DNA of 64,000 bases from Neomegalonema sp. (GCA_022760355.1 JALEGB010000087.1:950-64949), one strand, 5' to 3'. Counted from the first letter of the stretch, positions 7,521-19,841 are shown. Numbers and translations: made by a program. The notes: generated by a model not told the origin, from the letters alone.

Positions 7521-9464
7521 CTATTCATCGGCGGGGGGCGGAGGCGGGCCCGCCAGCGCCATTTGGGCGCTCAGGGCGCGGATGGCGAAACGCGCGCCGA
7601 CCCGGCTCAGATGGTGACTATCCGCAAAGTATGAGGCGAGATCCGGGGCCGCCACTTGGCATAGCGCCGCCGCGCAAAATGGAGACGCAAGCGCGATGCG
7701 CCGGGCGCCCGCCTTCTCCGCCTGCCGATACAAGCGCTCTCGCGCCGCCGCTTTGGCCAGATATCGATCCGGCAGCTTGTCGGCGCGGGCCCAGCCGCCC
7801 ACCGTCGCGCGGAAGATATAGGTCGGCGTCGTCACCCCCAGCTCCGGTCCCTGCGCAAAGACCGCCGTGCGCACGCCACGCGCCTTGAGCGCCTGGAGAG
7901 CGGCGACAAGACCGCCCTCAACACTGGGCACAGGATAGTGCCGCCAGCGCGCGAGCAGAAAAGCCTCCTTGACCTGCAACCGTTCGATCAGCTTCAGCGC
8001 CGCCGCGTTATGCGCGCCGCAATCGACGAATTTGGTTGGGTATGGGCGCTCATAGCCGAGCGCCGGCGGGCAGATGCCGGACCAGATTACATAAATGACG
8101 GCTTCACGCGCCTTCGCCCACTCGACAAAGCCCGGCGCGATCGCCCAGGCGTGGCTGTCTCCCCAAACTGCGATGACGGGCTTGCCCGGCGCAGCTTCGC
8201 CAATTCGACAACTTCTGGGATCAAGGCTTTGGCCGATATCGTCCGGCAGATCCGCGTGGAAGCTGACGCAAGCGCCCGGCGCGGCGCCATAGCGGTAGGA
8301 GTCTTTGGCCAGCAACGGCGCCAGCCCTGGATAACGCCCCGGCCAGCCGTCGCTTTCCTGCACCGCCCAGCCAAACAGAAGGATCGCGGCGATAGAAGCG
8401 GCCAGCCCGCCAAAGAAGCGCCGGCGCCGCCCCGCTCGTCGCAATGGCCGCTCAATCAGATGCAGCGACGCCGCGGAAATGGCGAAGGCGGCCGCCAACG
8501 CCAAACCGCTCTGCACCGGCGTCAGCGGGGCGCTCGACATGTAAGCCGCGGCGGCCAGAACCGGCCAGTGCCACAGATAGAAGGAGTAGGAAGCGCGCCC
8601 AATATAGACCACCACCGGGTTCGCCAGCAGCCTGTGCGCCGCGGTCTCGTCGGCCTCAAGATCTCGGCTGCGCTGGCCCGACCAGATGAACAACATCGCG
8701 CCCAATACAGGCGGCAACGCGGTCAGCCCGGGAAAGACTGTCGACGCGTCATAGAGGAAAGCGGGCGCGAGAATCAGGATCAAACCGAGCACCGCCAATG
8801 CGCAGCGCCCATGGCGCGACGCCACCCGAGGGCCGCGCAATGTCAGCAGCCCGCCGGCGACAAATTCCCACAGCCGAAAGGGGGTTAGAAAAAACGCGGC
8901 GCGGGGATCGGAATGAACGACGATCGCGGCGGCGACAAAAGACAGCGCGGCGACCCCGATCAGCCAAGCGCCGACGGGCGCTTTGCTCCATCGCAAAACG
9001 GCGACCAACAGGAGAGCGAAGAAAATATAAAACTGAAACTCAACCGCCAGCGACCAGCAATGCAGCAACCAGTAGGTATCTGGCGATGGTCCAAAATAGT
9101 CGAGATTATTGTAGAAAAAGAAGTTGGAACCGAAAACTGGAAGTAGTGAGACGCTTTCGCCAAAAAGCGCCAAATCTCGCGGGCTGCGCAATAGCGTTGA
9201 CGCAATAATCACCACGAGGGTGACGCAGATGAGCGCCGGCGCGACCCGGCGCAACCGCCGTTCCACAAAGCCAGCCAAATCAAACGCGCCGCGGCGGGAT
9301 TCGCTCAGAATGATCCCGGTGATCAGATAGCCTGAGATCACAAAGAAAATATCGACACCGAGATAGCCGCCCGTCAGCCCAAACAATTTCGCATGGTATA
9401 GCGCGACCAAAAGCACCGAGACGGCGCGCAGAGCGTCAATGTCGCGGCGATAAGGCAAACTCAT
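7521..9464 (-). CDS. acyltransferase family 3 membrane protein with C-terminal SGNH-like domain (OafA/YrhL-like)
   Basis: The N-terminus reads RRDIDALRAVSVLLVALYHA...GYLGVDIFFVISGYLIT, followed by about 10 TM helices and a soluble C-terminal domain (VWGDSHA). The start is set at ATG 9464 (MSLPYRRDIDALR). Confidence 0.85.
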   Translation of the reverse strand: MSLPYRRDIDALRAVSVLLVALYHAKLFGLTGGYLGVDIFFVISGYLITGIILSESRRGAFDLAGFVERRLRRVAPALICVTLVVIIASTLLRSPRDLALFGESVSLLPVFGSNFFFYNNLDYFGPSPDTYWLLHCWSLAVEFQFYIFFALLLVAVLRWSKAPVGAWLIGVAALSFVAAAIVVHSDPRAAFFLTPFRLWEFVAGGLLTLRGPRVASRHGRCALAVLGLILILAPAFLYDASTVFPGLTALPPVLGAMLFIWSGQRSRDLEADETAAHRLLANPVVVYIGRASYSFYLWHWPVLAAAAYMSSAPLTPVQSGLALAAAFAISAASLHLIERPLRRAGRRRRFFGGLAASIAAILLFGWAVQESDGWPGRYPGLAPLLAKDSYRYGAAPGACVSFHADLPDDIGQSLDPRSCRIGEAAPGKPVIAVWGDSHAWAIAPGFVEWAKAREAVIYVIWSGICPPALGYERPYPTKFVDCGAHNAAALKLIERLQVKEAFLLARWRHYPVPSVEGGLVAALQALKARGVRTAVFAQGPELGVTTPTYIFRATVGGWARADKLPDRYLAKAAARERLYRQAEKAGARRIALASPFCAAALCQVAAPDLASYFADSHHLSRVGARFAIRALSAQMALAGPPPPPADE

Positions 9465-9658
9465 AATCAGTCTCGCAAAAGGAGGGGAGCACGGACGCAA
9501 GACGCCACCCGATAGGAACCGATCGGCTCGTCAAAGCCGCCATGCCCGCCGAGATCAAGGCGGCTCGGCGCTCTGAACGGTGGGCCGACGGTTAAGTTGC
9601 GGCCGCGCTACGGGCGCGCGCTCCCACGGCGCGCCGCCGCCGCAACGCAGGCGCCCCC

Positions 9659-9687
9659 TTCACAAGCCGCAATGCAGGCCTTATCTT
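9659..9687 (+). promoter_or_regulatory. candidate sigma70-type promoter of ssrA
   Basis: TTCACA (9659-9664), a 17-nt spacer, then TATCTT (9682-9687). This places the transcription start near 9695, consistent with an acceptor piece of about 80 nt ending at the encoded CCA (9770). Confidence 0.4.
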
Positions 9688-9694
9688 AGCTACG

Positions 9695-10030
9695 TCTTTC
9701 GGGACTATGGCGATAAACGCGCGCGGAATAAACGGATCGGACCCGGGGGCGGTACCCGGCGGCTCCACCAACTCCCTCCTTCCCGGTCATTGGCGGGCGG
9801 GGCGACAGGCGAGAGAGGGGCCGAAATAGGATCGACGGACGTGTAAAGGCGTTAGCTTTCGCTCGGCAGGGCGCCACCGTTATCGGCCCGCTATGTACAG
9901 TTGCCAATGACAACCGTGCTCCGGTGGCGATGGCTGCTTAATGCAGTCGGACACACCGAAACTTAAGTCCTAATCCTTAGCCGGCTTAGGCGGGGCTCGA
10001 AGGCGCCTGGCAACAGAAGCCTTCACTTTC
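9695..10030 (+). ncRNA. ssrA: tmRNA (ssrA), circularly permuted two-piece alphaproteobacterial form; outer ends approximate
   Basis: The acceptor-piece 3' end ...ACCCGGGGGCGGTACCCGGCGGCTCCACCA ends at 9770. It lies upstream of the coding-piece 5' end GGGGCCGAAATAGGATCGACGGAC (from 9817), which resembles the canonical tmRNA 5' end and can pair with CGGCUCC. A tag reading frame follows. Confidence 0.85.
9903..9941 (+). other. tmRNA proteolysis-tag reading frame (ANDNRAPVAMAA, then stop)
   Basis: GCC AAT GAC AAC CGT GCT CCG GTG GCG ATG GCT GCT TAA. The ANDN...AA pattern is typical of alphaproteobacterial SsrA tags. Confidence 0.85.
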
Positions 10031-10157
10031 CATTGCAGCGCTCCGATAATCGTTCCCATCGCGGATGTGCTTTACTGCCATTTTATTTCAGAAAAATATC
10101 TTACTAACTGGTAAAGCCTTCTCATCCCGACATGGATCTATAGTGTCCACGCCGCTG

Positions 10158-12650
10158 ATGATTGAGGGCGAATCGGTGTTAGTTCGAAAGTTAAAACGGT
10201 CGCTGGGACGGCTGAATGATAATCTGCTGCCTGTCACGAAGCCGATCCGACGCGTCCTGCCGCGGTGGCGGAAGACGAATGGCGAGCGGCTGCCGCTCGG
10301 CGCGAGGGTATGGCGGATCACAAAGTTCGTTACTGTGGCCCTGCTGTTGCTCGCAACCCCAGCGCTCGCCATCGTCGTATTCATCGCCATCCCGTCGCAT
10401 ATTCTGCCGCAGATCGCGCGGCTGCAGGGAACAGATGCGGATATTCGCGAATTTGACCGCACGCATCACCGCTCCCACAGCGCGCTGCTCTATGACGGGC
10501 GCGGCCGCTATGTCGGCCTCCTAACCGCCGACGCCGCCCGTGACCGGGACTATGTCACCCGGTTGCGCGGTCGCGTTTTGTGGGGCGAGCAGGTTTTCTT
10601 CAACGACCATAAGAGCGTGCCGGTTGAAGACGCGCCGCGCTATTTCCACGCCTGTCTCGCTTATTTGGAGGATCGCCATCGCGGCGGGTGGGACAACCCG
10701 TACGGCGTATCCTGGACCGGCGTCTCCAAAGTGCCTCTCAGCCTGCTCGGCCTGGGAAAAGGCGGCGGATCGACGCTGGAAATGCAGCTGGCCCGATCCA
10801 TGTGGCAAACCTATCCGGGGCAAGACAAGCGCAACAACACCACGCGCCAGGAGCGTAAATTCGCGGAGTGGGAAGCGGCGCCGCGTCTGCGACGCGCTCT
10901 GACGGCGGACTTCAAAGATGAAAGCCAACTGAGACGCTGGCTGAGCCAGCATATCGCGCTCGCCCAGGGGGCGGACAAGCAAGGGTCCGTCTATGGGGTC
11001 GAAGCCGTCGGGATGTTCGCGTTCGGCAAACGGGCCGCCGAGCTCACGCCGGCGCAGCAGCTTGTGCTCGCCGCCGCGGTGAAGCAGCCGCTGAGCTTTC
11101 GTCCTTCCGTGGCGAAGCGCAGAGACTTTCTCCGCTCGCTGATCGGCGCGCCGAACAAGCCGAAGCGCGCATTTCTTTGTACGCAGCCGGGCGCATCCTA
11201 CGATTCGCCGGCGGGACCGCAAAAGATCTTCCTGGATGAGCCGACCCGCCTCGCCGCGGCCAAGGAGCTCTCGACCCTGGCCCGAGACTATAAAGGGCCC
11301 TACCTGCATCCGGAACTGCGCGCCCTCGCCAAGCCGTTGGAAAAGCATCCTGCCGGCCCGCGCTTTGGGCCGCTGGCGCTCAGCGACTATTTCCTCGGAC
11401 GCGCGGCGACCGAAGCCGCGGCCCAGCTGACCGACTATTTCGCGGCCCATCCGGACACGGACCCGGCGCGCCATCTGTTCCGCGGCCGCCTGACCGCCGC
11501 GCGGCTGACCCTTGACGCCACGCGGAACCGCCCCTTCACCGAAGAGGCGCGCACACTGCTCAAAAGCTGGGGCGCGAAAATGATCGACGCCCGTGGCGAG
11601 GGATTCGACAAGGAAGTCCTCAAACACCTGCTGATCGCCGCAATCGATGAGCGAGGCCGGATCGTCCGCTACTACACCAGCAGCAGCGACACCCCTCTCT
11701 TTGGCCGCGCCGCCACCCGGCCGGAGAACACCTATAGCGAAGGGCCGTATGACCCTTCCCGGCAGCGGCGCATCGTTGGTTCGGTCTATAAGGTCGCCGC
11801 CGCAATGCTGCTCGCCGAGCAAGGTGCGACAAACCCCAACGAGATTTGGTCGAACGCCTGCTTTTACGGCATCACCAGCCGCTGCATGCGGCTGGCGAGC
11901 GGCGTCGGCTATCGCGCGAAAGTAAAAGCCCGGGTCGCGTTCGCGGAAAGCTTGAACGCCGCTGTCGCGCGCAAATTGGATGGCCCGGTTTCAGGCGGCC
12001 GGATGCGCGAATTCGCCAAAAGCCTCGGCGTCGAGGTCGACGATCCTTATGTGCGCGCGTCAACGAGCATGGCGTTGGGCCGGTATCGGACGCGTCCGCT
12101 GGAAATTCTGATGTTGATGAGCATGGCGCGCGCCTATGCCGAGGCGGATTGGACGGCGCCCATCGCCAAGCCTCATCTCATTACTGAAATAGAAGCGTTC
12201 GATGAGGCGAAGAGCAAAAAGCTGGGCTGGCGCAAAATTACCGGCGCGTCGAAGCCGCTGACCGACTATGTGCGCCCCAGCGCCAACGCGAAGAAAAGCG
12301 CCGCCTTTGTGCGCACGGTGCTCAGCGCGCCATTGTGCCAGCGCACGACAAAGCTCGTCCGCCCCACCTTACGCGGGCTCCGATCTTGGTGCGCGCGCCG
12401 AAACAAAGATGTCGCCGTCCATCTCGCCAAAACCGGCACCGTCCCCGGGCCGCCCAGCGAATATGGCCGGAATGAAAGAGATTGGTGGATCGGCGGCGCC
12501 ATCCGATTTCGCGACGGCCGCGCCTACAGCTATGTCGTCGCCCTCGGCCCCGCCCCGTCCGGCGGCTCCTTCGCCCGAGACCTGTCATCGCGCCAACTCG
12601 CGCCCTTTGTCGAGCTCCTCCTGGAGTCGCTCAAAGCTGACCATTACTGA
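10158..12650 (+). CDS. divergent bifunctional class-A penicillin-binding-protein-like protein (GT51 transglycosylase plus transpeptidase motifs), N-terminal TM anchor
   Basis: GT51-like motifs: LAYLEDRHRGG, GGSTLEMQLARS, RKFAEWEAA and GVEAVGMFAFGKRAAELTPAQQLVLAA. Transpeptidase triad: SVYK, SLN and KTGT. One TM segment (FVTVALLLLATPALAIVVFIAI). The start is uncertain: ATG 10065, ATG 10158, or GTG 10176 preceded by GAGGG. Confidence 0.75.
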   Translation: MIEGESVLVRKLKRSLGRLNDNLLPVTKPIRRVLPRWRKTNGERLPLGARVWRITKFVTVALLLLATPALAIVVFIAIPSHILPQIARLQGTDADIREFDRTHHRSHSALLYDGRGRYVGLLTADAARDRDYVTRLRGRVLWGEQVFFNDHKSVPVEDAPRYFHACLAYLEDRHRGGWDNPYGVSWTGVSKVPLSLLGLGKGGGSTLEMQLARSMWQTYPGQDKRNNTTRQERKFAEWEAAPRLRRALTADFKDESQLRRWLSQHIALAQGADKQGSVYGVEAVGMFAFGKRAAELTPAQQLVLAAAVKQPLSFRPSVAKRRDFLRSLIGAPNKPKRAFLCTQPGASYDSPAGPQKIFLDEPTRLAAAKELSTLARDYKGPYLHPELRALAKPLEKHPAGPRFGPLALSDYFLGRAATEAAAQLTDYFAAHPDTDPARHLFRGRLTAARLTLDATRNRPFTEEARTLLKSWGAKMIDARGEGFDKEVLKHLLIAAIDERGRIVRYYTSSSDTPLFGRAATRPENTYSEGPYDPSRQRRIVGSVYKVAAAMLLAEQGATNPNEIWSNACFYGITSRCMRLASGVGYRAKVKARVAFAESLNAAVARKLDGPVSGGRMREFAKSLGVEVDDPYVRASTSMALGRYRTRPLEILMLMSMARAYAEADWTAPIAKPHLITEIEAFDEAKSKKLGWRKITGASKPLTDYVRPSANAKKSAAFVRTVLSAPLCQRTTKLVRPTLRGLRSWCARRNKDVAVHLAKTGTVPGPPSEYGRNERDWWIGGAIRFRDGRAYSYVVALGPAPSGGSFARDLSSRQLAPFVELLLESLKADHY

Positions 12651-12662
12651 TTGGAGAGCAGC

Positions 12663-14435
12663 GTGAACACGTTAAAACAGCGCATTTTACAGCTTTGGGC
12701 GCAAGTTCTGAACGTATTTGTCACCGGATTCACTCTGCTATCCTTTTATGGCACATGGATCGGTCTGGCCGGCATTATCAATCTGGGCGACGATGAGAAA
12801 GGAACCGGCGACATCGTCGTGTTCATCCTTGTCGGTCTTTTGACCCTGGTCATGGTCTATGCTCTGCAGCAGTTCCTGCGTTATTTCGGCTCCTACAAAT
12901 CGATCATTCCGTTCGTGATGTATGTGCCGCTGTTGATCTTCAGTATCTCATTCGGTTTCGCCTTCTACTGGCAACGCCTCAACGCGAATGACGAAGCGGT
13001 TACCGCATCGACAAGCGGCCTCTCCACCATCGAGCAGAGCATAGATGGCGCAAAAGATCGGCTGGCCACGGTCCGTAGCGATATGACGGCGCTGGCCGCC
13101 AGTTTCTCCGACCTCGCCAAGGTGGAGCGGGAAAAAGGCGGCACGTGCGGCGACGGATCGCCCCCAGGCGCCGGCCCTCGCATGCGGCACCGGGATCGCC
13201 GTTCGGGCGAGATCAGCCGCAAAGTCTCCGAGCTCGCGAGCCGCTTTGACCGGCTGGACGGCCCGTTGAAAGAACTGGCCGACAGCCGCGCCGCGATCGA
13301 AGCCTATTCCCGTTTGCCGCAAAAGGAACGCACAGCTGTCAAGCGGGGCGAGCTGATCAAAAAGGCCGAGGCGACGGCGGCCAGCGCGGCGTCCAAGATC
13401 TCGCTGCTCGCGGGCGATCCTCTGATTGCGTCCACGGCGGCTACATTTGAAACATGGGCCAAGGAGTATACGGACCCGTCCCTGGTTCGCCGTGATGATC
13501 CGGCGGGGAGCCGCTATAAATGCGTCAGCCCGGCAGCGGCGACCAGCCTGCGCGCCGCAGCAACCTCGCTGCGTTCTCTGCCGAAGGTGGATGCGCCGCG
13601 TTTTGAGGCTTTTGTCGGCTCCGACGCCACGAAGGAGGCGCTTTTCCGCGTTGCACTGACGCTTTGGCCGTTTGGGCAAAACCCAGCCCCAGCAACGCCC
13701 GGAACCTCTGGCGCCCCCGCGCCGACAGTCGTGAACATCCCGGCGGGGATTGGCGACAAAGCGGAGGCGGAGTTCCGCAAGGCGGCCGAAAAGATTGCGA
13801 AGCTTGAGGAGGAGCTCAAGAGAAAGGAGGCGACGCCAACCGCGAAAGCCGCCGCCCCCGCGGCGACGAAAGGCGGCCTGAAACAGGCCGACTATTTCCC
13901 GCTGTTCGTCGCCAGCTTCGTCGACTTCATGCTGCTCATGTGCGCAGCGATGTCCGAAGATGCGAGGCGACGCCTCGGCGCCGCCGAGCGGCTCTATGAA
14001 GACTCGCAGAAAGATTCCGGCGTCGTTCTGGAGGTGCTGATCAAATCCGACCAGCTGCTGGAGCGTGAGGAATGGCGGCGCCTATCGAGATATCTGCTCC
14101 ATGATGATGGCGACTATTACTTCGTGGTCCCGCCACGCACGATAGGCGGCCAAACCCACGACGGCGCGCAGAACCTCACGCTCGCGTTGCTCGGCCAAGA
14201 CGTGATTGCTGAAACGACGAAAATTGACGCGGACCGGATCCGCGAAAAATTTAAGGCCGGCCATACGCCCGAAGGTCTGACGTCAATTGCCGACAGCGAC
14301 ATCGAAAATCTTGAGGCCTATCGCTTCCGGAAGAAGAAGCTGCTGCGGTTGGTCTATCAGATCATCGGCGACAAGCAGACGTCAGTGTCGAGAGCGCGGG
14401 ACGCACAAGAGGACGAGGAGAAGATGGACGCTTAA
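12663..14435 (+). CDS. hypothetical membrane protein: three N-terminal TM helices, long coiled-coil/Ala-rich region, fourth TM, C-terminal soluble domain
   Basis: The GTG at 12663 is preceded by GGAGAG and lies 12 nt after the PBP-like stop. The track's TTG at 12651 is an alternative start. TM strings: VFVTGFTLLSFYGTWIGLAGII, IVVFILVGLLTLVMVYAL, IIPFVMYVPLLIFSISFGFAFYW and YFPLFVASFVDFMLLMCAAM. No family was recognised. Confidence 0.6.
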   Translation: MNTLKQRILQLWAQVLNVFVTGFTLLSFYGTWIGLAGIINLGDDEKGTGDIVVFILVGLLTLVMVYALQQFLRYFGSYKSIIPFVMYVPLLIFSISFGFAFYWQRLNANDEAVTASTSGLSTIEQSIDGAKDRLATVRSDMTALAASFSDLAKVEREKGGTCGDGSPPGAGPRMRHRDRRSGEISRKVSELASRFDRLDGPLKELADSRAAIEAYSRLPQKERTAVKRGELIKKAEATAASAASKISLLAGDPLIASTAATFETWAKEYTDPSLVRRDDPAGSRYKCVSPAAATSLRAAATSLRSLPKVDAPRFEAFVGSDATKEALFRVALTLWPFGQNPAPATPGTSGAPAPTVVNIPAGIGDKAEAEFRKAAEKIAKLEEELKRKEATPTAKAAAPAATKGGLKQADYFPLFVASFVDFMLLMCAAMSEDARRRLGAAERLYEDSQKDSGVVLEVLIKSDQLLEREEWRRLSRYLLHDDGDYYFVVPPRTIGGQTHDGAQNLTLALLGQDVIAETTKIDADRIREKFKAGHTPEGLTSIADSDIENLEAYRFRKKKLLRLVYQIIGDKQTSVSRARDAQEDEEKMDA

Positions 14436-14480
14436 CCTCGCGTTTAGATTTACAACTACGCAACATTGAGGGGAAATCGA

Positions 14481-15041
14481 ATGTTGAAACATCACCTACC
14501 TGGCAAGACGATCTTAATGGAAGCGCCCTATTCTGGATATCGAGGGGGAATAGCTTCCGGAGATCTGAAAATGGAAGGCGACCTTCGGCATTTTGATTTC
14601 GGCGCCTATGCCGCTGGACATTCTGTCGACAGTATGTTGGCGCAGCTTTTCGCGGCGCCAGATCGTAGCCGCCGCACCCGCGGCGTTATGGTGCTGGCGG
14701 CGTCAAAACAGTCGCCCATCGTGCAAGAGCTGCTGGAGCACAGCACCCAGTTTCACCGCAACCGCATTCGGTGCCGCACCACCGTGATGCGTCAGGGGTT
14801 CTGGAACGGTTTGTTCGGTGGCGGCTCCAGCGGGGCGATCCAGTTTAAACAGCGCCGTTTCCCACGCATGGAGCAATTGCGCGAGATGGCGGCCTTCGGC
14901 AGCGAAGCAATCTGGCGCGGCGCTCCGCTCGGAGCCGCGCCGCTGCAACCAAACCAAGGCGAATGGATCTCGCGGTACAACGATCCCGAAGCGTTCGACT
15001 TTGCCATGATGTGCCTGGATACCTGTTGGTTCCCCAAGTAA
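14481..15041 (+). CDS. hypothetical soluble protein (186 aa), no recognised family
   Basis: The ATG at 14481 is preceded by GAGGGG (14468-14473) and lies 45 nt after the upstream stop. No signal peptide or TM segment. Its stop codon sits inside the first copy of a 17-bp tandem repeat. Confidence 0.5.
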   Translation: MLKHHLPGKTILMEAPYSGYRGGIASGDLKMEGDLRHFDFGAYAAGHSVDSMLAQLFAAPDRSRRTRGVMVLAASKQSPIVQELLEHSTQFHRNRIRCRTTVMRQGFWNGLFGGGSSGAIQFKQRRFPRMEQLREMAAFGSEAIWRGAPLGAAPLQPNQGEWISRYNDPEAFDFAMMCLDTCWFPK

Positions 15042-15075
15042 TCAGGTTCCACAAGTAACCTGGTTCCACAAGCAA
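15028..15075 (+). repeat. three tandem copies of a 14-nt core at 17-bp period
   Basis: GGTTCCCCAAGTAA (15028-15041), GGTTCCACAAGTAA (15045-15058) and GGTTCCACAAGCAA (15062-15075). The first copy encodes the last residues (WFPK) and the stop of the upstream ORF. Confidence 0.9.
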
Positions 15076-15444
15076 CGATGCGACGCCTCACGCCCCATCC
15101 TCCTCGCCCTTGGGCGAGCCTGCGATGGGGCGCGCAGGGCGTTGCGCCGTTTGCCCCTCGCTTCGACGGGTCTCTTCGAGCCAGTTCGATCAAAGGCCAA
15201 CCCAGACCACATGGCGATCGCCGACGCCCGGCGCGCAGTGCATATCACTTGGCGGAAGAGGCTTCAGCTGCTCGAATTCCGCTTCCCCCCAAGAAGAACA
15301 CGGCGATCAGACAGCTCAAACTTCCCGTTTCCGGGAGCTGGAGGAGCCTTTATCGACCTGCCGGAACCGTGTGAATGGTCCACCCCCAACAGCACCGCAG
15401 TCGCGCCGCCCAGTTTCACCCGAACGACGCGCGCGGCGGGCTGG

Positions 15445-17856
15445 TTACGCCATCCCGAGCAATCGGCGGAAAAATATGCCGAGATAGCCGCTGCCGAACG
15501 AAAACAGCTCGCCCAGCAGCCATAGCATCAGCAGCACGCCAGTCGGCCAGGCGACCAGTTTCATATATTGGAAATAGCTGGCGATCAGCTTCAGCTGCCG
15601 GGTGTTTTCCCGCGTCGCCTCGGCCTCGATCATCAACGCGGTGGTCTGGATCGTGCTCATGATCGTCTGCAGCCGCTCCCGCAGCGCCACAAGCCGTTGA
15701 CCGGCGAAATGGATCAAGTCGAAAGTCGGCCGCAAGCCGCGCTTCACGAATTGCTCATAGCTGACCCAGCCTTTGATGTCGCCGATTTCAAGCGTCGGGT
15801 AGAGGCGATCAAACTCACGCACAAAGCTTTGCGCCCGCTCAATCACGTACAACATCCGCCCAGAGCCGCCTTCGCCGACATTGTCCAGCTGCCCCGCCAA
15901 TGCGATCAGCTTGCGCTCGGATCGCGTGACCGCGTCATTCAGCTCATATATCCGCAGATCCTCAAGGTCCTGCTGGGTTTGATTGATGTCCGGCCGACTG
16001 TATTTCGGCCGCCCCAACCAATCCCGCGCCGGTTCGCGGATTTGCGGCGGCGCAATCCGCAGGCGATTTTCCGCCATCCGCTCCAGATGCCGTTGCTCAA
16101 TCAAGCGGCGCGTTTTGCTCCATTGCTTCAGCTCGTGATCCAACTCGCGGCCGAGCAGCTCAAGCAGTACGCCAGCGTTGCGCATCCGCGAATAGTTGCG
16201 CAGCGCGAACAGCCGCATGGTGGCGACGGCGTTGATCCGTTCGACGAATCGGCCGATCTGCTCCCGATGCGGCTCGCCCTTTGTCACGATCAGGAACCGC
16301 TGCGGCCGCGACGCTTCCCGCTTGAGCAGCAGCTTTTTGTGATGCGGCTCTTTCGCCACCGCATCCAGATCCCAAACCGCCTCACGCTCAGGCAACGAGG
16401 GGTCGACATCGGCCGGGAACCGACCTGGACCTTCATCATAGTCGTGAAATTTGCCGGTGGAGCCGAGGGCGCTGACATACAGCGCCCGCCAGCTGATGAT
16501 CCCGCATCCGACGAAGCTGCGATAGTCCGCCCAGGGCGACATCCGCCGCAAGAACGGCCAGAGGGACTTGAGAACCGTGTTGCCCTCATTGCTTTGCGGA
16601 TCGAACTCATCCAAATCGCCCACGCCCGTCGTCCCGACATTCGGATCTGGGCGCCAGGGCGTGGAGTCGTCGTGCGACGGCGCGGCGCCCATCTTGTTGA
16701 GATCTCGCAGCCCCTTCGTCGCCGCCTCGCGATTGACATCCGAGACGGTGCGCAAGCCGCGCATGGACATCACCAGCCCGCGAAAATCGGCGAAGCGATT
16801 GATCGCCCAGCCATTCTCATCCTCATCGTCGCGCCACTGCACATAATCGTCAATGTCGGCGGCTTCACGCGCATACTCATCGGCGTTTTTGGCGGTCATA
16901 TGCCCTTTGTTCAGCGCGAACTTCAGGCCAAAATCGCGCATAAACTCACGCCACACGCCTTCATACAGATAGTCCGCGGCGTCTCTCAGCTTCGCTGCGC
17001 GCGTTGGATCGACGTCCTTCTCCGGCAACCGCCATTTATCAACCGCGCCGCTAACCATCTGATTATGCGACGTTTCGCGGATAAGATCGACATAATCGAT
17101 GATGTGCTTGCGTCGGCGCGACGCGCCGTCGGCCACGCGGCCGGCATGATCGATCTGCTCGCCGCCATAGGGTTTGAGCGCGTCGATATAGAATGCGATC
17201 GTCGCGTGATCACGGTGCATCTGGCATTCGACGCGCACGCGAATATCGCTTTCATCCGGCAGTGGGCGCTCGCGTTGAGCCGGCTCGGCGGACGCCTCGG
17301 CGCCAATTGCGCTATCTCGCCACCAGATCGTAAAGCCCACATGTCGCGGCTCCGGCCGCCGGAAGTTCCACGGCCCGCTTTCGATGCCGTCCCCCTCGCC
17401 GCCATCGCCCGCTGCGCGCGCATCGGAGCTGTGATCGACGAATTTTTTGAACTCGAACTGCTCGATCGCGGCGCCCGCAACCCGCCCGCGCTTCTGCAAG
17501 GAAACCAGTAGCGCGTTCAGCTCGCTGCAGAACAGCTCTTGGGCCTTCTCATAGCCACGGAACCGCCGCTCCAGCTGCGCGAGCGGATTTTCGGCGTTCT
17601 CTTCGCCATCAGCGATGCGCCCGCCCGCTTCGCCAAAAGCGCGAGAGGGCCAGACGCCCATATGCCAAACGAGAGTCGGCGATCCGATCGCCGGGGCTTT
17701 ATTTTGATGCCCGACCTGCTGGATTTCATTATAGCGGCCGGCATAGGGCCAAATCGCCCCATTCGTCGCCGCAAATTCCTTGAACGCGTTCGCCGCACCT
17801 GCGACCGCATGTTCGGACGCGCGCGAGCGCCCCCATAGAGACCGAAAACGAAGCAT
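15445..17856 (-). CDS. expanded DUF3422-like membrane-anchored protein (803 aa)
   Basis: The ATG at 17856 is preceded by GAGGGAGGG. The track start at 17871 is a TTG. Three strings recall DUF3422 proteins: RVECQMHRDHATIAFYID, IGRFVERINAVATMRLFALRN, and the CorA-like C-terminus (...GLRPTFDLIHFAGQRLVALRERLQ...TRENTRQLKLIAS followed by hydrophobic VAWPTGVLLMLWLLGELF). It is roughly twice my remembered typical family length. Confidence 0.6.
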   Translation of the reverse strand: MLRFRSLWGRSRASEHAVAGAANAFKEFAATNGAIWPYAGRYNEIQQVGHQNKAPAIGSPTLVWHMGVWPSRAFGEAGGRIADGEENAENPLAQLERRFRGYEKAQELFCSELNALLVSLQKRGRVAGAAIEQFEFKKFVDHSSDARAAGDGGEGDGIESGPWNFRRPEPRHVGFTIWWRDSAIGAEASAEPAQRERPLPDESDIRVRVECQMHRDHATIAFYIDALKPYGGEQIDHAGRVADGASRRRKHIIDYVDLIRETSHNQMVSGAVDKWRLPEKDVDPTRAAKLRDAADYLYEGVWREFMRDFGLKFALNKGHMTAKNADEYAREAADIDDYVQWRDDEDENGWAINRFADFRGLVMSMRGLRTVSDVNREAATKGLRDLNKMGAAPSHDDSTPWRPDPNVGTTGVGDLDEFDPQSNEGNTVLKSLWPFLRRMSPWADYRSFVGCGIISWRALYVSALGSTGKFHDYDEGPGRFPADVDPSLPEREAVWDLDAVAKEPHHKKLLLKREASRPQRFLIVTKGEPHREQIGRFVERINAVATMRLFALRNYSRMRNAGVLLELLGRELDHELKQWSKTRRLIEQRHLERMAENRLRIAPPQIREPARDWLGRPKYSRPDINQTQQDLEDLRIYELNDAVTRSERKLIALAGQLDNVGEGGSGRMLYVIERAQSFVREFDRLYPTLEIGDIKGWVSYEQFVKRGLRPTFDLIHFAGQRLVALRERLQTIMSTIQTTALMIEAEATRENTRQLKLIASYFQYMKLVAWPTGVLLMLWLLGELFSFGSGYLGIFFRRLLGMA

Positions 17857-17860
17857 GAAT

Positions 17861-17892
17861 CCCTCCCTCAAGTTTCACCTTCGAGGGGAGGG
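17861..17892 (-). promoter_or_regulatory. hairpin sequestering the Shine-Dalgarno of the DUF3422-like gene (or attenuator after the AIPR gene)
   Basis: The minus-strand RNA reads CCCUCCCCUC-GAAGGUGAAACUU-GAGGGAGGG-AUUC-AUG. Seven contiguous G:C/A:U pairs (17861-17867 with 17886-17892) are extended by two more pairs across a 1-nt bulge. The 3' arm is the SD itself. Confidence 0.5.
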
Positions 17893-17954: not shown

Positions 17955-19841
17955 CTAGTCCGGATCCGGCAACGCCTCCTCCATCGCGCGCTTCACCACA
18001 GCGTCCCGCGTCTTCTTCAGTTGCGGCACGCCCTGCACCCGGCTGCGCATCCGATCCCGCGGGCTTTGCGTAATGTCCATGACCTTTTGGGCCAGAAGCT
18101 CCCGCCGGCCTTCGGCGTTCATCTGCATCTCAATCCGCCGGCACATCGCCCGCATTGCGGCGGAGTCGCCCAAAGGCGGCTTCGCCGGCGCGCACAACAG
18201 ACGCAGACCAAGCGCGGCGTGCAGCTCAATCTGAGCCAATCGCGCCTCATCCCGCTCTCGGGCGACCTCGCGCACGAACTGCAGCAATCGCGCCGCAACA
18301 TAGTACGGCTCAGCAGTCAGCGACGGCGCAAGAAGATGGTCGTCGACCTCGCCGGCGAGAGCAGCGAAACCGCGCTCGGCAACATGGCTTTTTTCCAGAA
18401 AGACCGCGTAGAAACTGCGCAGCAACTCCTCGAGCGAAATCCGCTCCGCCGGCATCGACTTCGCATATTGCCCAGGTCGACGCTCCAGCACCAAGGCCGG
18501 CCCGCCGGCGCGGGCGCGACTGATGAAATGCTCTTCGATCGCCAGCGCTTTTTCACACGCGGCGAACAGGGCCGCGCCCGTGATCGGGGTTTGGCGGTTG
18601 GTAGCGTCAATGATCGCCCGGCGCACCGGCGTATTGATTGCGCCGACCAATTTCACCGGCACATGCACATCCCGCGCATTCCGCAGCTCATCGCGGTTGC
18701 GATAAATAACGGTGCTGGTCTGCAAGCCGTTCACGATCTGGAAGTTGCGAAGGTGGACCGCGCCGCCATTTTCTTCAACCGCATCGGCGACGACAGTTAC
18801 ACCGTTATTCCGCAGCAAGAATTGCGCGCGATCTTTGCTGAGCAGCGTGTCGCGAATACGCGCATTGACGCCGCCATCGCCCTGATAGCCACGCACATTT
18901 TGGTTGAAGATCGCCTCACGCATGCCCTGACCATCTTCACGCTCCAACAGCTGCAGGAACTGACCGATCGGAACATGGCCGAAGAACCCGCCCTCGACGC
19001 CTTTGATGTTCGGGATCGCGATCAGGCCATTGCTGGGCAGGGCGACTTCGTAATCTTCGACCTCAAGGCGCGTTTTGCCGGGCTCGGGCACAGTGTGCAG
19101 CGGCATGCCGGTGGCCATGAAATCCAGCAAGCGGCCGCGATCGACGGCCTCAAACTCAACATCCGCCCCGCCATCGCCGGATTGCGCCAGCCACTTTACC
19201 GATCCCACCCGGCGACGCCCTTCGCGCAGCGCTTCCGCGGCGCCGCTTTCGTCATTCCAATGACCAAGCGCGGCGAAATAACCATAAACGGAGACACGCA
19301 GCGCAATCTTTGATTCAAACGCCCGGGCGCGCAGCTGCGCAAGCAATGCGCGTTTCGGCGCAAGAGCCGCATCGACTGCGTCGCCCTCAAAGAAGGCGGC
19401 GACCTCATCGACAAATCGAACCATTTTCTCCGGTTCGAACCGGTTGGCGCGGGTCGCCTGAACGGCTGCGAAGGATACCGCCATCTGCTCAGCCGCCACC
19501 TCCAGCACCGCATCGAGCGCGGCGGAATCCTCAACGATCCGGCCGTTGACCATCATCACCATGCAATGAAGGGCGCCTTCCCCTTCGCGAGAGGTGACGA
19601 GCGAGCCCACCTTTAGCGGCTCAAGCTCCTGATCGTGAAAGCGTCTCAGAACGTGGAAGGCGGCGAAACGTTCGAATACTTCGCCGCGCTGCTCGTCGGA
19701 TAGGGCCCCGAAGTCAAGCCCAAGCTCCGCCGCAAATTCGCGAACAGCAACAGCAACCGCGTTGGGCGGCCTTTTCTTTTTTCCGCGCCGCGCTGCTTTT
19801 CGAGTCGTCTCCTGCTTACGACCAACTGCTAGTTGTAGCAT
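17955..19841 (-). CDS. AIPR family protein (abortive infection phage resistance)
   Basis: 628-aa ORF with AGGAG upstream. The central string NFQIVNGLQTSTVIY...VPVKLV...IIDATNRQTPI matches the AIPR hallmark (xxNGxQT...N.Q). The N-terminus is Lys/Arg-rich. Confidence 0.8.
   Translation of the reverse strand: MLQLAVGRKQETTRKAARRGKKKRPPNAVAVAVREFAAELGLDFGALSDEQRGEVFERFAAFHVLRRFHDQELEPLKVGSLVTSREGEGALHCMVMMVNGRIVEDSAALDAVLEVAAEQMAVSFAAVQATRANRFEPEKMVRFVDEVAAFFEGDAVDAALAPKRALLAQLRARAFESKIALRVSVYGYFAALGHWNDESGAAEALREGRRRVGSVKWLAQSGDGGADVEFEAVDRGRLLDFMATGMPLHTVPEPGKTRLEVEDYEVALPSNGLIAIPNIKGVEGGFFGHVPIGQFLQLLEREDGQGMREAIFNQNVRGYQGDGGVNARIRDTLLSKDRAQFLLRNNGVTVVADAVEENGGAVHLRNFQIVNGLQTSTVIYRNRDELRNARDVHVPVKLVGAINTPVRRAIIDATNRQTPITGAALFAACEKALAIEEHFISRARAGGPALVLERRPGQYAKSMPAERISLEELLRSFYAVFLEKSHVAERGFAALAGEVDDHLLAPSLTAEPYYVAARLLQFVREVARERDEARLAQIELHAALGLRLLCAPAKPPLGDSAAMRAMCRRIEMQMNAEGRRELLAQKVMDITQSPRDRMRSRVQGVPQLKKTRDAVVKRAMEEALPDPD

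Follow-up and report, generated by a model that had tools for sequence, protein, structure and literature searches.

The DNA analysed here is a window of 64,000 nucleotides from Neomegalonema sp. (GCA_022760355.1 JALEGB010000087.1:950-64949) which carries, between positions 10065 and 15041, a compact operon of three genes designated A, B and C. The first gene encodes a divergent class-A penicillin-binding protein (PBP)-like synthase, the second a membrane protein and the third a small soluble protein. Across related genomes, B-C constitutes the invariant core of the module and is in nearly every case accompanied by a gene for a class-A PBP-type synthase, which can be A, PbpC or both. We read A-B-C as an accessory peptidoglycan-synthase module provided with a dedicated membrane-spanning partner, most likely devoted to envelope maintenance or repair, and assign to this reading a probability of about 0.5. 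The features of the operon are as follows, positions being counted from the first letter of the window and the residues of A being numbered in its longest open reading frame (ORF, start 10065).

10033 to 10142, + strand: AT-rich leader/promoter region, including the first 26 codons of the longest ORF of A, probably untranslated
10143 to 12650, + strand: gene A, divergent bifunctional class-A PBP-like synthase (longest ORF from 10065)
10605 to 11114, + strand: GT51 glycosyltransferase domain of A (catalytic residues E202 and E268)
11685 to 12647, + strand: transpeptidase-like domain of A, with S573-x-x-K576, S629-L-N631 and K789-T-G791
12651 to 14435, + strand: gene B, membrane protein with four transmembrane (TM) helices, unannotated family (alternative start GTG 12663)
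12699 to 12971, + strand: the three N-terminal TM helices of B, residues ~17-107; the first loop holds an invariant G-D
12972 to 13895, + strand: helical-bundle region of B, residues 108-415, probably periplasmic, with invariant C166 and C291
13137 to 13202, + strand: signature loop GGTCGDGSPPGAGPRMRHRDRR of B, residues 163-184
13896 to 13961, + strand: fourth TM helix of B, residues 416-437, with invariant D425 inside and invariant D414 just before
13962 to 14432, + strand: C-terminal alpha/beta domain of B, residues 438-594, probably cytoplasmic
14481 to 15041, + strand: gene C, small soluble protein with a probable, degenerate phospholipase D (PLD)-like fold (possible starts 14466, 14481 and 14571)

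The three co-oriented ORFs are found on the + strand where a first, sequence-only reading of this DNA had placed them, at 10065-12650 (861 aa), 12651-14435 (594 aa) and 14466-15041 (191 aa), and their GC content at third codon positions (0.75 for A, 0.73 for B and 0.67 for C) is of the coding type for a 62% GC genome. Their stops are more certain than their starts. Gene A stops at 12650 and gene B starts at TTG 12651 or at GTG 12663, which leaves 0-12 nt between them; the GTG start yields the 590-aa protein of the database gene call. Gene B stops at 14435 and gene C can start at TTG 14466, at ATG 14481, leaving a gap of 45 nt, or at 14571, which gives the 156-aa database gene call. The spacings of 0-12 nt and 45 nt originally proposed are thus right for plausible start codons. 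For gene A, the GTG at 10143 (database gene call, 835 aa) is the more likely start than 10065. The segment 10065-10142 has a GC content of 34.6% against 62% for the window and, given also the database call at 10143, the longest ORF probably begins with 26 codons of leader or promoter sequence. A sigma-70-like site is located at 10022-10050.

By domain content, protein A is a class-A PBP that falls outside every named orthologous group. It comprises a head extending to residue 84, a single TM helix (residues ~85-110), the GT51 domain (181-350), a linker or insert (~351-540) and the transpeptidase domain (~541-861). The basic cytoplasmic head noticed earlier is present, with 17 K+R against 4 D+E before the TM helix. 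The Pfam Transgly model (PF00912) matches residues 181-350 with an E of 4.4e-13 and 49.5 bits for a cut-off of 27. A search with the single sequence retrieves PBP1a (3NB6/2OQO), and the profile of the A family, compared to the PDB, retrieves PBP1a 4OON with an E of 1.4e-14; the transpeptidase region is matched by profile to Listeria PBP4 3ZG7 (E 3e-5), and TIGR02074 gives a weak match on residues 610-714. Every GT51 motif and the complete SxxK/SxN/KTG triad announced by the sequence-only reading could be located: LED at 201-203, GGSTLEMQ at 234-241, RKFAE at 264-268, SVYK at 573-576, SLN at 629-631 and KTG at 789-791, the last three in canonical order and spacing. When 46 distinct relatives of A are aligned, E202, D203, GGST, R264, K265, E268, S573, K576, S629, K789 and G791 are invariant, N631 is retained in 45 of the 46, and position 790 is either T or S. 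The retention of the catalytic residues in all these relatives indicates, at the level of sequence, purifying selection on both the GT51 and the transpeptidase activities, and A is apparently an active, catalytically competent bifunctional class-A PBP.

The divergence of A from the housekeeping PBP1a, PBP1b and PBP1c proteins, also claimed beforehand, is confirmed by the NCBIfam models, all of which score far under their cut-offs: 49.9 bits for 508.75 with TIGR02074 (PBP1A), 18.6 for 717.75 with TIGR02071 (PBP1B), 23.7 for 494.2 with TIGR02073 (PBP1C) and 34.7 for 900 with NF051885 (PbpC). No Pfam match to a BiPBP_C domain is found in A. The GT51 glutamate and the transpeptidase serine are separated by 371 residues in A and by 260 in the PbpC proteins of the related loci, so that the large inter-domain insert described earlier does correspond to extra residues, although their number only amounts to about 110 relative to these PbpC proteins. 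In the source annotation, A is named 'transglycosylase domain-containing protein'. Its close relatives, 27-40% identical, are rare and form seven clusters.

The linkage of the three genes was analysed in 92 related loci (designated below by L followed by a number), in which ORFs were called and clustered and tblastn was run. The sequence-only reading had suggested following the three families across genomes, and they prove to be syntenic elsewhere: A-B-C or A-B is found in L001, L003, L004, L006 and L013, and again in the loci of Hyphomonas and in many of those of Hyphomicrobiaceae. The flanking genes differ entirely among L001, L003, L004, L006 and L013. All four homologues of A whose context was looked up (L003, L004, L005 and L006), as well as that of L001, reached via B, are adjacent to B, the order being B-A in L005. 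An ORF of the C family directly follows B in 69 of the 79 loci having enough downstream sequence, and A lies upstream of B in 43 of the 63 loci with at least 4 kb upstream. The median intergenic gaps are 122 nt between A and B and 117 nt between B and C. When the comparison is restricted to the 43 well-flanked loci, whose sequence extends over 4 kb or more upstream and 9 kb or more downstream, A is accompanied by the pair formed by alpha-2-macroglobulin (A2M) and PbpC in 20, while 10 display A only, 10 A2M-PbpC only and 3 neither.

These data bear directly on the possibility that A is an ordinary housekeeping PBP1a, PBP1b or PBP1c lying by chance beside two unrelated hypothetical genes. While A is recognisably a class-A PBP, its scores are 7 to 40 times lower than the NCBIfam cut-offs for PBP1A, PBP1B and PBP1C, the three genes recur together in unrelated contexts, and the operon is not located in a dcw or mrc-type neighbourhood. 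Chance adjacency is contradicted by both the synteny and the family scores, and we regard it as extremely improbable.

The second class-A PBP associated with B-C is PbpC. In 30 of the 43 well-flanked loci, B-C lies directly upstream of an A2M gene and a PbpC gene on the same strand. A BiPBP_C domain is present in the PbpC of the related loci, and the CxEQ thioester is found in all 32 full-length A2M neighbours, which are therefore of type I. The genes of type-I A2M and PBP1c are known to occur side by side, and the pair has been proposed to act jointly in periplasmic defence and repair: upon a breach of the envelope, A2M would trap proteases while PBP1c repairs the peptidoglycan (PMC5764988). 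The idea of an envelope-remodelling or envelope-surveillance module, advanced as a speculation in the sequence-only reading, thus receives indirect support, of the guilt-by-association kind only, from the position of B-C beside A2M-PbpC. In Hyphomicrobiaceae, the typical order is a CAP-domain lipoprotein gene on the opposite strand, followed in the direction of the operon by genes for a 390-aa protein of no assigned function, a 1120-aa double P-loop HerA-like ATPase, A, B, C, a type-I A2M and PbpC. The 390-aa protein (L079 1833-3005) has no Pfam match. The ATPase is encoded upstream of A in 27 loci (e.g. L007 178-3546) and contains AAA_22/AAA_16 domains in its N-terminal part and DUF87/HerA_C in its C-terminal part, its PADLOC match being mad8 with an E of 3e-20; it may be a further component of the module or a separate system. 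An ATPase fragment was also observed beside B-C in L021, in the other orientation.

The layout of protein B foreseen from the sequence, with three N-terminal TM helices, a long helical region containing a peculiar string, a fourth TM helix and a C-terminal domain, was recovered in full. Neither B nor C matches a characterised family, and nothing rises above threshold in Pfam, NCBIfam or PADLOC for either protein, be it of the window type or of the Hyphomicrobium type; the source names seen for members of both families are all 'hypothetical protein'. The B family is nevertheless extensive. An exhaustive profile search retrieved 672 clusters at 50% identity with E <= 1e-3, 196 of them with E <= 1e-30, and 372 genomes were matched when one genome per species was scanned. 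The string GGTCGDGSPPGAGPRMRHRDRR, regarded as unusual in the sequence-only reading, is instead the most conserved motif of the family: G163, C166, G175 and R177 are invariant in an alignment of 35 sequences, where P176 is nearly so, and R181 is invariant in an alignment of seven. Its core, C-x(4-14)-GPR, is found in 93 of 114 full-length representatives.

The topology of B can be approached from the family as a whole. Three hydrophobic segments precede the signature motif in 72 of 94 members and one follows it in 91 of 94. Basic residues average 3.5 per 20 at the N-terminus, and a mean of 4.4 K+R is counted in the 20 residues following the fourth TM helix. Between the third and fourth TM helices, every one of the 71 relatives scored has an even number of cysteines, 65 having two and 6 having four. 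On the basis of these TM counts, basic-residue distribution and even cysteine counts, we infer that both termini of B are cytoplasmic, with a periplasmic, disulfide-bonded helical domain and a cytoplasmic C-terminal domain; that the helical bundle itself carries the disulfide is probable. In the AlphaFold2 model of B, residues 130-320 form helices with a predicted local distance difference test (pLDDT) of 75-93, GGTCGDGSPPGAGPRMRHRDRR is a loop between two long helices, and the strands and helices of the C-terminal part (482-572) have a pLDDT of about 70-76. Comparison of the B-family profile to the PDB sequences only returned designed coiled coils, Rad50 and syntaxin, which are compositional matches.

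DUF4407 gives 14.2 bits on the B of the window (E 0.027, for a gathering cut-off of 31.3) and reaches E <= 0.1, still below threshold, in 7 of 35 members of the B family, where the match covers the first long helices and has a best E of 1.5e-4. Its overall layout is presumably similar to that of B, with an extended helical stretch set between TM helices. DUF4407 has no assigned function, and the three papers in which it appears name it just in passing. It is a possible distant relative of B, and was not adopted as its family, as the matches stay sub-threshold. Nine long relatives of B (650-1352 aa) were also scanned for fused domains, which only gave coiled-coil noise. The Hyphomicrobium-type B proteins (e.g. 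L002 1757-4366) reach 870-1150 aa through a C-terminal tail placed after the conserved domain, of Pro/Ala-rich, low-complexity sequence in L002; the window type, of about 600 aa, has no such tail. Finally, in L045 (~14528-16048, - strand), a Rhodomicrobium metagenome-assembled genome (MAG), and in L081 (~14354-15493, - strand), a Hyphomicrobiales MAG, a second, weak B-like match lies 4-5 kb downstream of B but on the other strand; it may be a diverged paralogue.

For protein C, a profile built from five sequences retrieved 63 clusters at 90% identity, mostly Hyphomicrobium proteins of 190-195 aa. The window-type and Hyphomicrobium-type C are homologous, as judged by hhalign (probability 97.8%, E 1.2e-12). 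An AlphaFold2 model calculated with a 34-sequence alignment reached a pLDDT of 75 and a predicted template-modelling score (pTM) of 0.70. In the 186-aa form, the first 42 residues are predicted to be disordered, and the folded part, residues 43-186, corresponds to positions 14607-15038. Compared to the PDB using Foldseek, this model has as its top 19 hits members of the PLD superfamily exclusively (PLD2, PLD3, Zucchini, NucT and vaccinia F13), the scores being weak (E 6e-3 to 4e-2, probability up to 0.98, template-modelling score 0.27-0.47). None of the PLD Pfam models matches C, and the C-family profile finds nothing among the PDB sequences. The HKD motif HxK(x)4D(x)6G(S/T)xN is absent from C, with no Lys or Asn at the motif positions. 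The corresponding region reads H-E-Q...W-x-G-D-C-M-R-R-D-P in the Hyphomicrobium type and R-E-M...W-R-G-A-P-L in the window, where the His of HxK is replaced by Arg; invariance in the family is limited to E135, W145, G147 and a few further positions. No signal peptide or TM segment could be seen by inspection. Protein C is probably a cytoplasmic, non-catalytic PLD-fold subunit, more likely to be a binding or adaptor subunit than an enzyme because the HKD catalytic motif is lost. A tandem imperfect 17-mer, GGTTCCCCAAGTAATCA / GGTTCCACAAGTAACCT, is present at 15028-15061, across the stop codon of C.

Taken as an accessory synthase module, A-B-C could operate as follows. Protein A would be a divergent bifunctional synthase anchored in the inner membrane, with its basic head in the cytoplasm. 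The three N-terminal TM helices of B would place the helical bundle, with its G-T-C...G-P-R loop, in the periplasm beside the synthase, and the fourth would return the chain to the cytoplasm, where the small alpha/beta domain probably docks C, acting as a PLD-fold binding or adaptor subunit. Both the A-B and the B-C contacts are putative. B-C would be wired to A in the window and to A, to the A2M and PbpC pair, or to both in its relatives, and the module would most likely position or activate a wall synthase other than the housekeeping ones, so that the envelope is maintained or repaired. A more specific proposal, which we put forward as a tentative one and consider unlikely in its full form, is that B-C acts across the envelope as a device dedicated to class-A PBP-type synthases: the bundle would sense damage to the wall or periplasm, or activated A2M, and would recruit or activate A or PbpC, while the cytoplasmic domain of B and protein C would provide coupling to a cytoplasmic or lipid signal.

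A number of observations weigh against an accessory module for maintenance or repair. No tblastn match to A2M or PbpC is found in the 64-kb window, so that the link to repair is borrowed from relatives whose B is about 25% identical. Some loci display B-C with no PBP-like gene within 10 kb and L003 has A-B without C; the partners therefore need not occur together in cis. Neither the A of the window nor that of Hyphomicrobium is matched at E <= 0.1 by the Pfam Transpeptidase model (PF00905), and the transpeptidase domain of A is very divergent. The AlphaFold2 model of B, built on a three-sequence alignment, is of low overall confidence (mean pLDDT 60), and Foldseek comparison of this low-confidence model to the PDB gave no match at E < 0.3, hence no known fold. 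Lastly, the island position of the operon at ssrA and the adjoining abortive-infection gene fit a conflict system equally well. The corresponding features are listed below.

9655 to 10027, + strand: ssrA, two-piece alphaproteobacterial transfer-messenger RNA (tmRNA), Rfam RF01849, 286.7 bits, E 1.6e-82
15445 to 17871, - strand: 808-aa membrane-anchored protein with a C-terminal TM segment and a weak DUF3422 match, E 1.6e-4
17955 to 19841, - strand: AIPR/AbiU gene, convergent with the operon

The ssrA gene, whose type assigns the organism to the Alphaproteobacteria and in which ARAGORN recognises a permuted tmRNA with the tag ANDNRAPVAMAA, ends about 35 nt before the longest ORF of A and forms the left edge of an accessory block. 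As tmRNA genes are classic insertion points of genomic islands, ssrA is the likely insertion site. No direct repeat of the ssrA 3' end could be found between 9.6 and 24.8 kb and no integrase gene was seen in the accessory block. The AIPR neighbour reported earlier is genuine (Pfam E 8e-34; PADLOC AbiU E 5e-70), and the description of the surroundings as an accessory block holds for this genome, where the operon comes straight after ssrA and adjoins the AbiU gene. The 808-aa gene lies 83 nt downstream of the AIPR/AbiU gene on the same strand. Both were considered as parts of the module and rejected, as none of the 92 related loci contains a homologue of either; together they may make up an abortive-infection system of two genes, distinct from the module. 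On the other side of ssrA, at 7521-9500 (- strand), an AT3 + SGNH acyltransferase, which we take to be an OafA/OatA-like enzyme of the envelope glycan O-acetyltransferase type, diverges from ssrA and the operon, and is not conserved beside the module elsewhere. The remainder of the window is chromosomal and includes a two-component system, a DEAD-box helicase and the nuo operon.

This setting raises the possibility of an anti-phage or conflict system in which B would be a membrane effector or sensor, C a degenerate PLD module and A an envelope-acting component, infection being blocked at the envelope. The ssrA-adjoining island beside AIPR/AbiU speaks in its favor, as do the transposases and integrase near the L003 copy, the PD-(D/E)XK/REase gene and AAA ATPase near that of L005, and the HerA-like, mad8-like ATPase just upstream of A in the 27 Hyphomicrobiaceae loci; PLD-fold proteins are moreover common in defence systems. 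However, with PADLOC v2.0.0 the A, B and C proteins of the window and of Hyphomicrobium obtained no meaningful match, the sole entry for the A of the window being a marginal Cas5b (E 0.03); of the operon and its surroundings, just the adjoining AIPR gene is recognised, as AbiU. A also retains every biosynthetic catalytic residue, and C has lost the HKD motif expected of a catalytic PLD module. In Hyphomonas and Hyphomicrobiaceae, the cluster lies between housekeeping genes in conserved order, read from sequence as MoeA, LeuS, HolA and a formate-dehydrogenase subunit; the module is therefore not simply a mobile accessory cassette. It is essentially absent from viral contigs, with a single marginal match to B-C, at a contig edge, among 2.9 million, and is thus not phage-borne. 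Among 14 related loci inspected for a tRNA or tmRNA beside the module, only an unrelated tRNA-Tyr was found, in L014, and a literature search revealed no published PBP-containing defence system. A defence function is consequently judged to be quite improbable, and the simplest reading of the window is that its operon is a minimal A-B-C form of the synthase module, acquired at ssrA.

The distribution of the module among genomes suggests another function, namely that A-B-C is a morphogenetic module directing zonal peptidoglycan synthesis during stalk, hypha or bud growth, the copy of the window having been laterally acquired. The best 80 of the 372 genome matches belong mostly to Hyphomicrobium, Filomicrobium, Rhodomicrobium, Methyloceanibacter and Hyphomonas, genera that for the most part form stalks or buds, and in Hyphomonas A-B-C is found without A2M in a conserved core neighbourhood. 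Deletion of PBP1X, a class-A PBP of H. neptunium that may or may not be a member of family A, is reported to lead to longer and more variable stalks (bioRxiv 10.1101/360230, which cites Cserti 2017). The taxonomic bias, on the other hand, may stem from similarity ranking, as it is read from the best 80 of 372 genomes. The divergent clade that includes the window occurs in unclassified Pseudomonadota MAGs, where the module is located near transposases and an integrase (L003) or near ssrA. In L003 (10001-14379 in a genome of 3.5 Mb), transposases and a phage-type integrase are found upstream and ftsK and bacA downstream, and the GC content is 51.6% on the ftsK/bacA side against 58.1% for A-B, which suggests lateral transfer of the A-B core. 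A tight link to A2M, a protease trap, would also be unexpected for a shape determinant. A morphogenetic role therefore appears rather unlikely to us, and envelope maintenance or repair remains the preferred function of the module.

The synthase module can be compared to a few systems described previously. The operon of type-I A2M and PBP1c (E. coli yfhM-pbpC, Salmonella A2M) likewise associates a non-housekeeping class-A PBP with envelope partners outside the cell-division cluster. However, the A of the window has no BiPBP_C domain and only scores 24-35 bits on the PBP1c and PbpC models (cut-offs 494 and 900), and B and C are not part of the described pair. In Gammaproteobacteria, the PBP1A-LpoA and PBP1B-LpoB/CpoB systems are class-A PBPs with dedicated regulators, the Lpo proteins being outer-membrane lipoproteins. 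As in these systems, a bifunctional GT51/transpeptidase synthase with an extra inter-domain region would work here with a cognate accessory protein. In contrast, B is a four-TM inner-membrane protein sharing no sequence or fold similarity with Lpo, and its putative regulatory function is deduced from gene linkage. The predicted fold of C comes closest to those of single-domain PLD proteins (Nuc/NucT and Zucchini/PLD6), with template-modelling scores of 0.40-0.47 over about 155 aligned columns. The spacing of HEQ...W.GD in C resembles that of HxK...GSxN in PLD proteins, but HKD is absent, the Glu being the sole invariant residue of the three. The literature searched does not describe the A-B-C triad, the B family or the C family, nor could the A-B-C module be found in the alphaproteobacterial literature and family libraries.

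To our knowledge, the control of class-A PBPs outside Gammaproteobacteria remains largely unknown. The present analysis defines two unannotated families, B with about 670 clusters at 50% identity and C with at least 63 clusters at 90% identity, which are linked at the gene level to a new and apparently catalytically intact class-A PBP subfamily as well as to A2M-PbpC. The novelty lies in the partner families of this class-A PBP operon, whose context relates it to A2M-PbpC. A cell-wall specialist would not expect such an association. Were B-C shown to regulate a synthase, it would represent a new class of wall-synthesis control proteins. Should the trans-envelope proposal be true, B-C would be, as far as we know, the first dedicated class-A PBP regulator in Alphaproteobacteria, and would supply the missing mechanistic link of the 'periplasmic immunity and repair' attributed to A2M and PBP1c, a partnership that is still a hypothesis since it was first proposed (PMC5764988). 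Should the operon turn out to serve in defence, the system would have a peptidoglycan synthase at its centre, and either outcome would be new. The module is carried by isolates (Filomicrobium insigne CGMCC 1.6497 and Hyphomicrobium sp. LHD-15) and by genera with model species (Hyphomonas and Rhodomicrobium), which opens the idea to genetics and biochemistry and makes an old hypothesis testable in culturable carriers.

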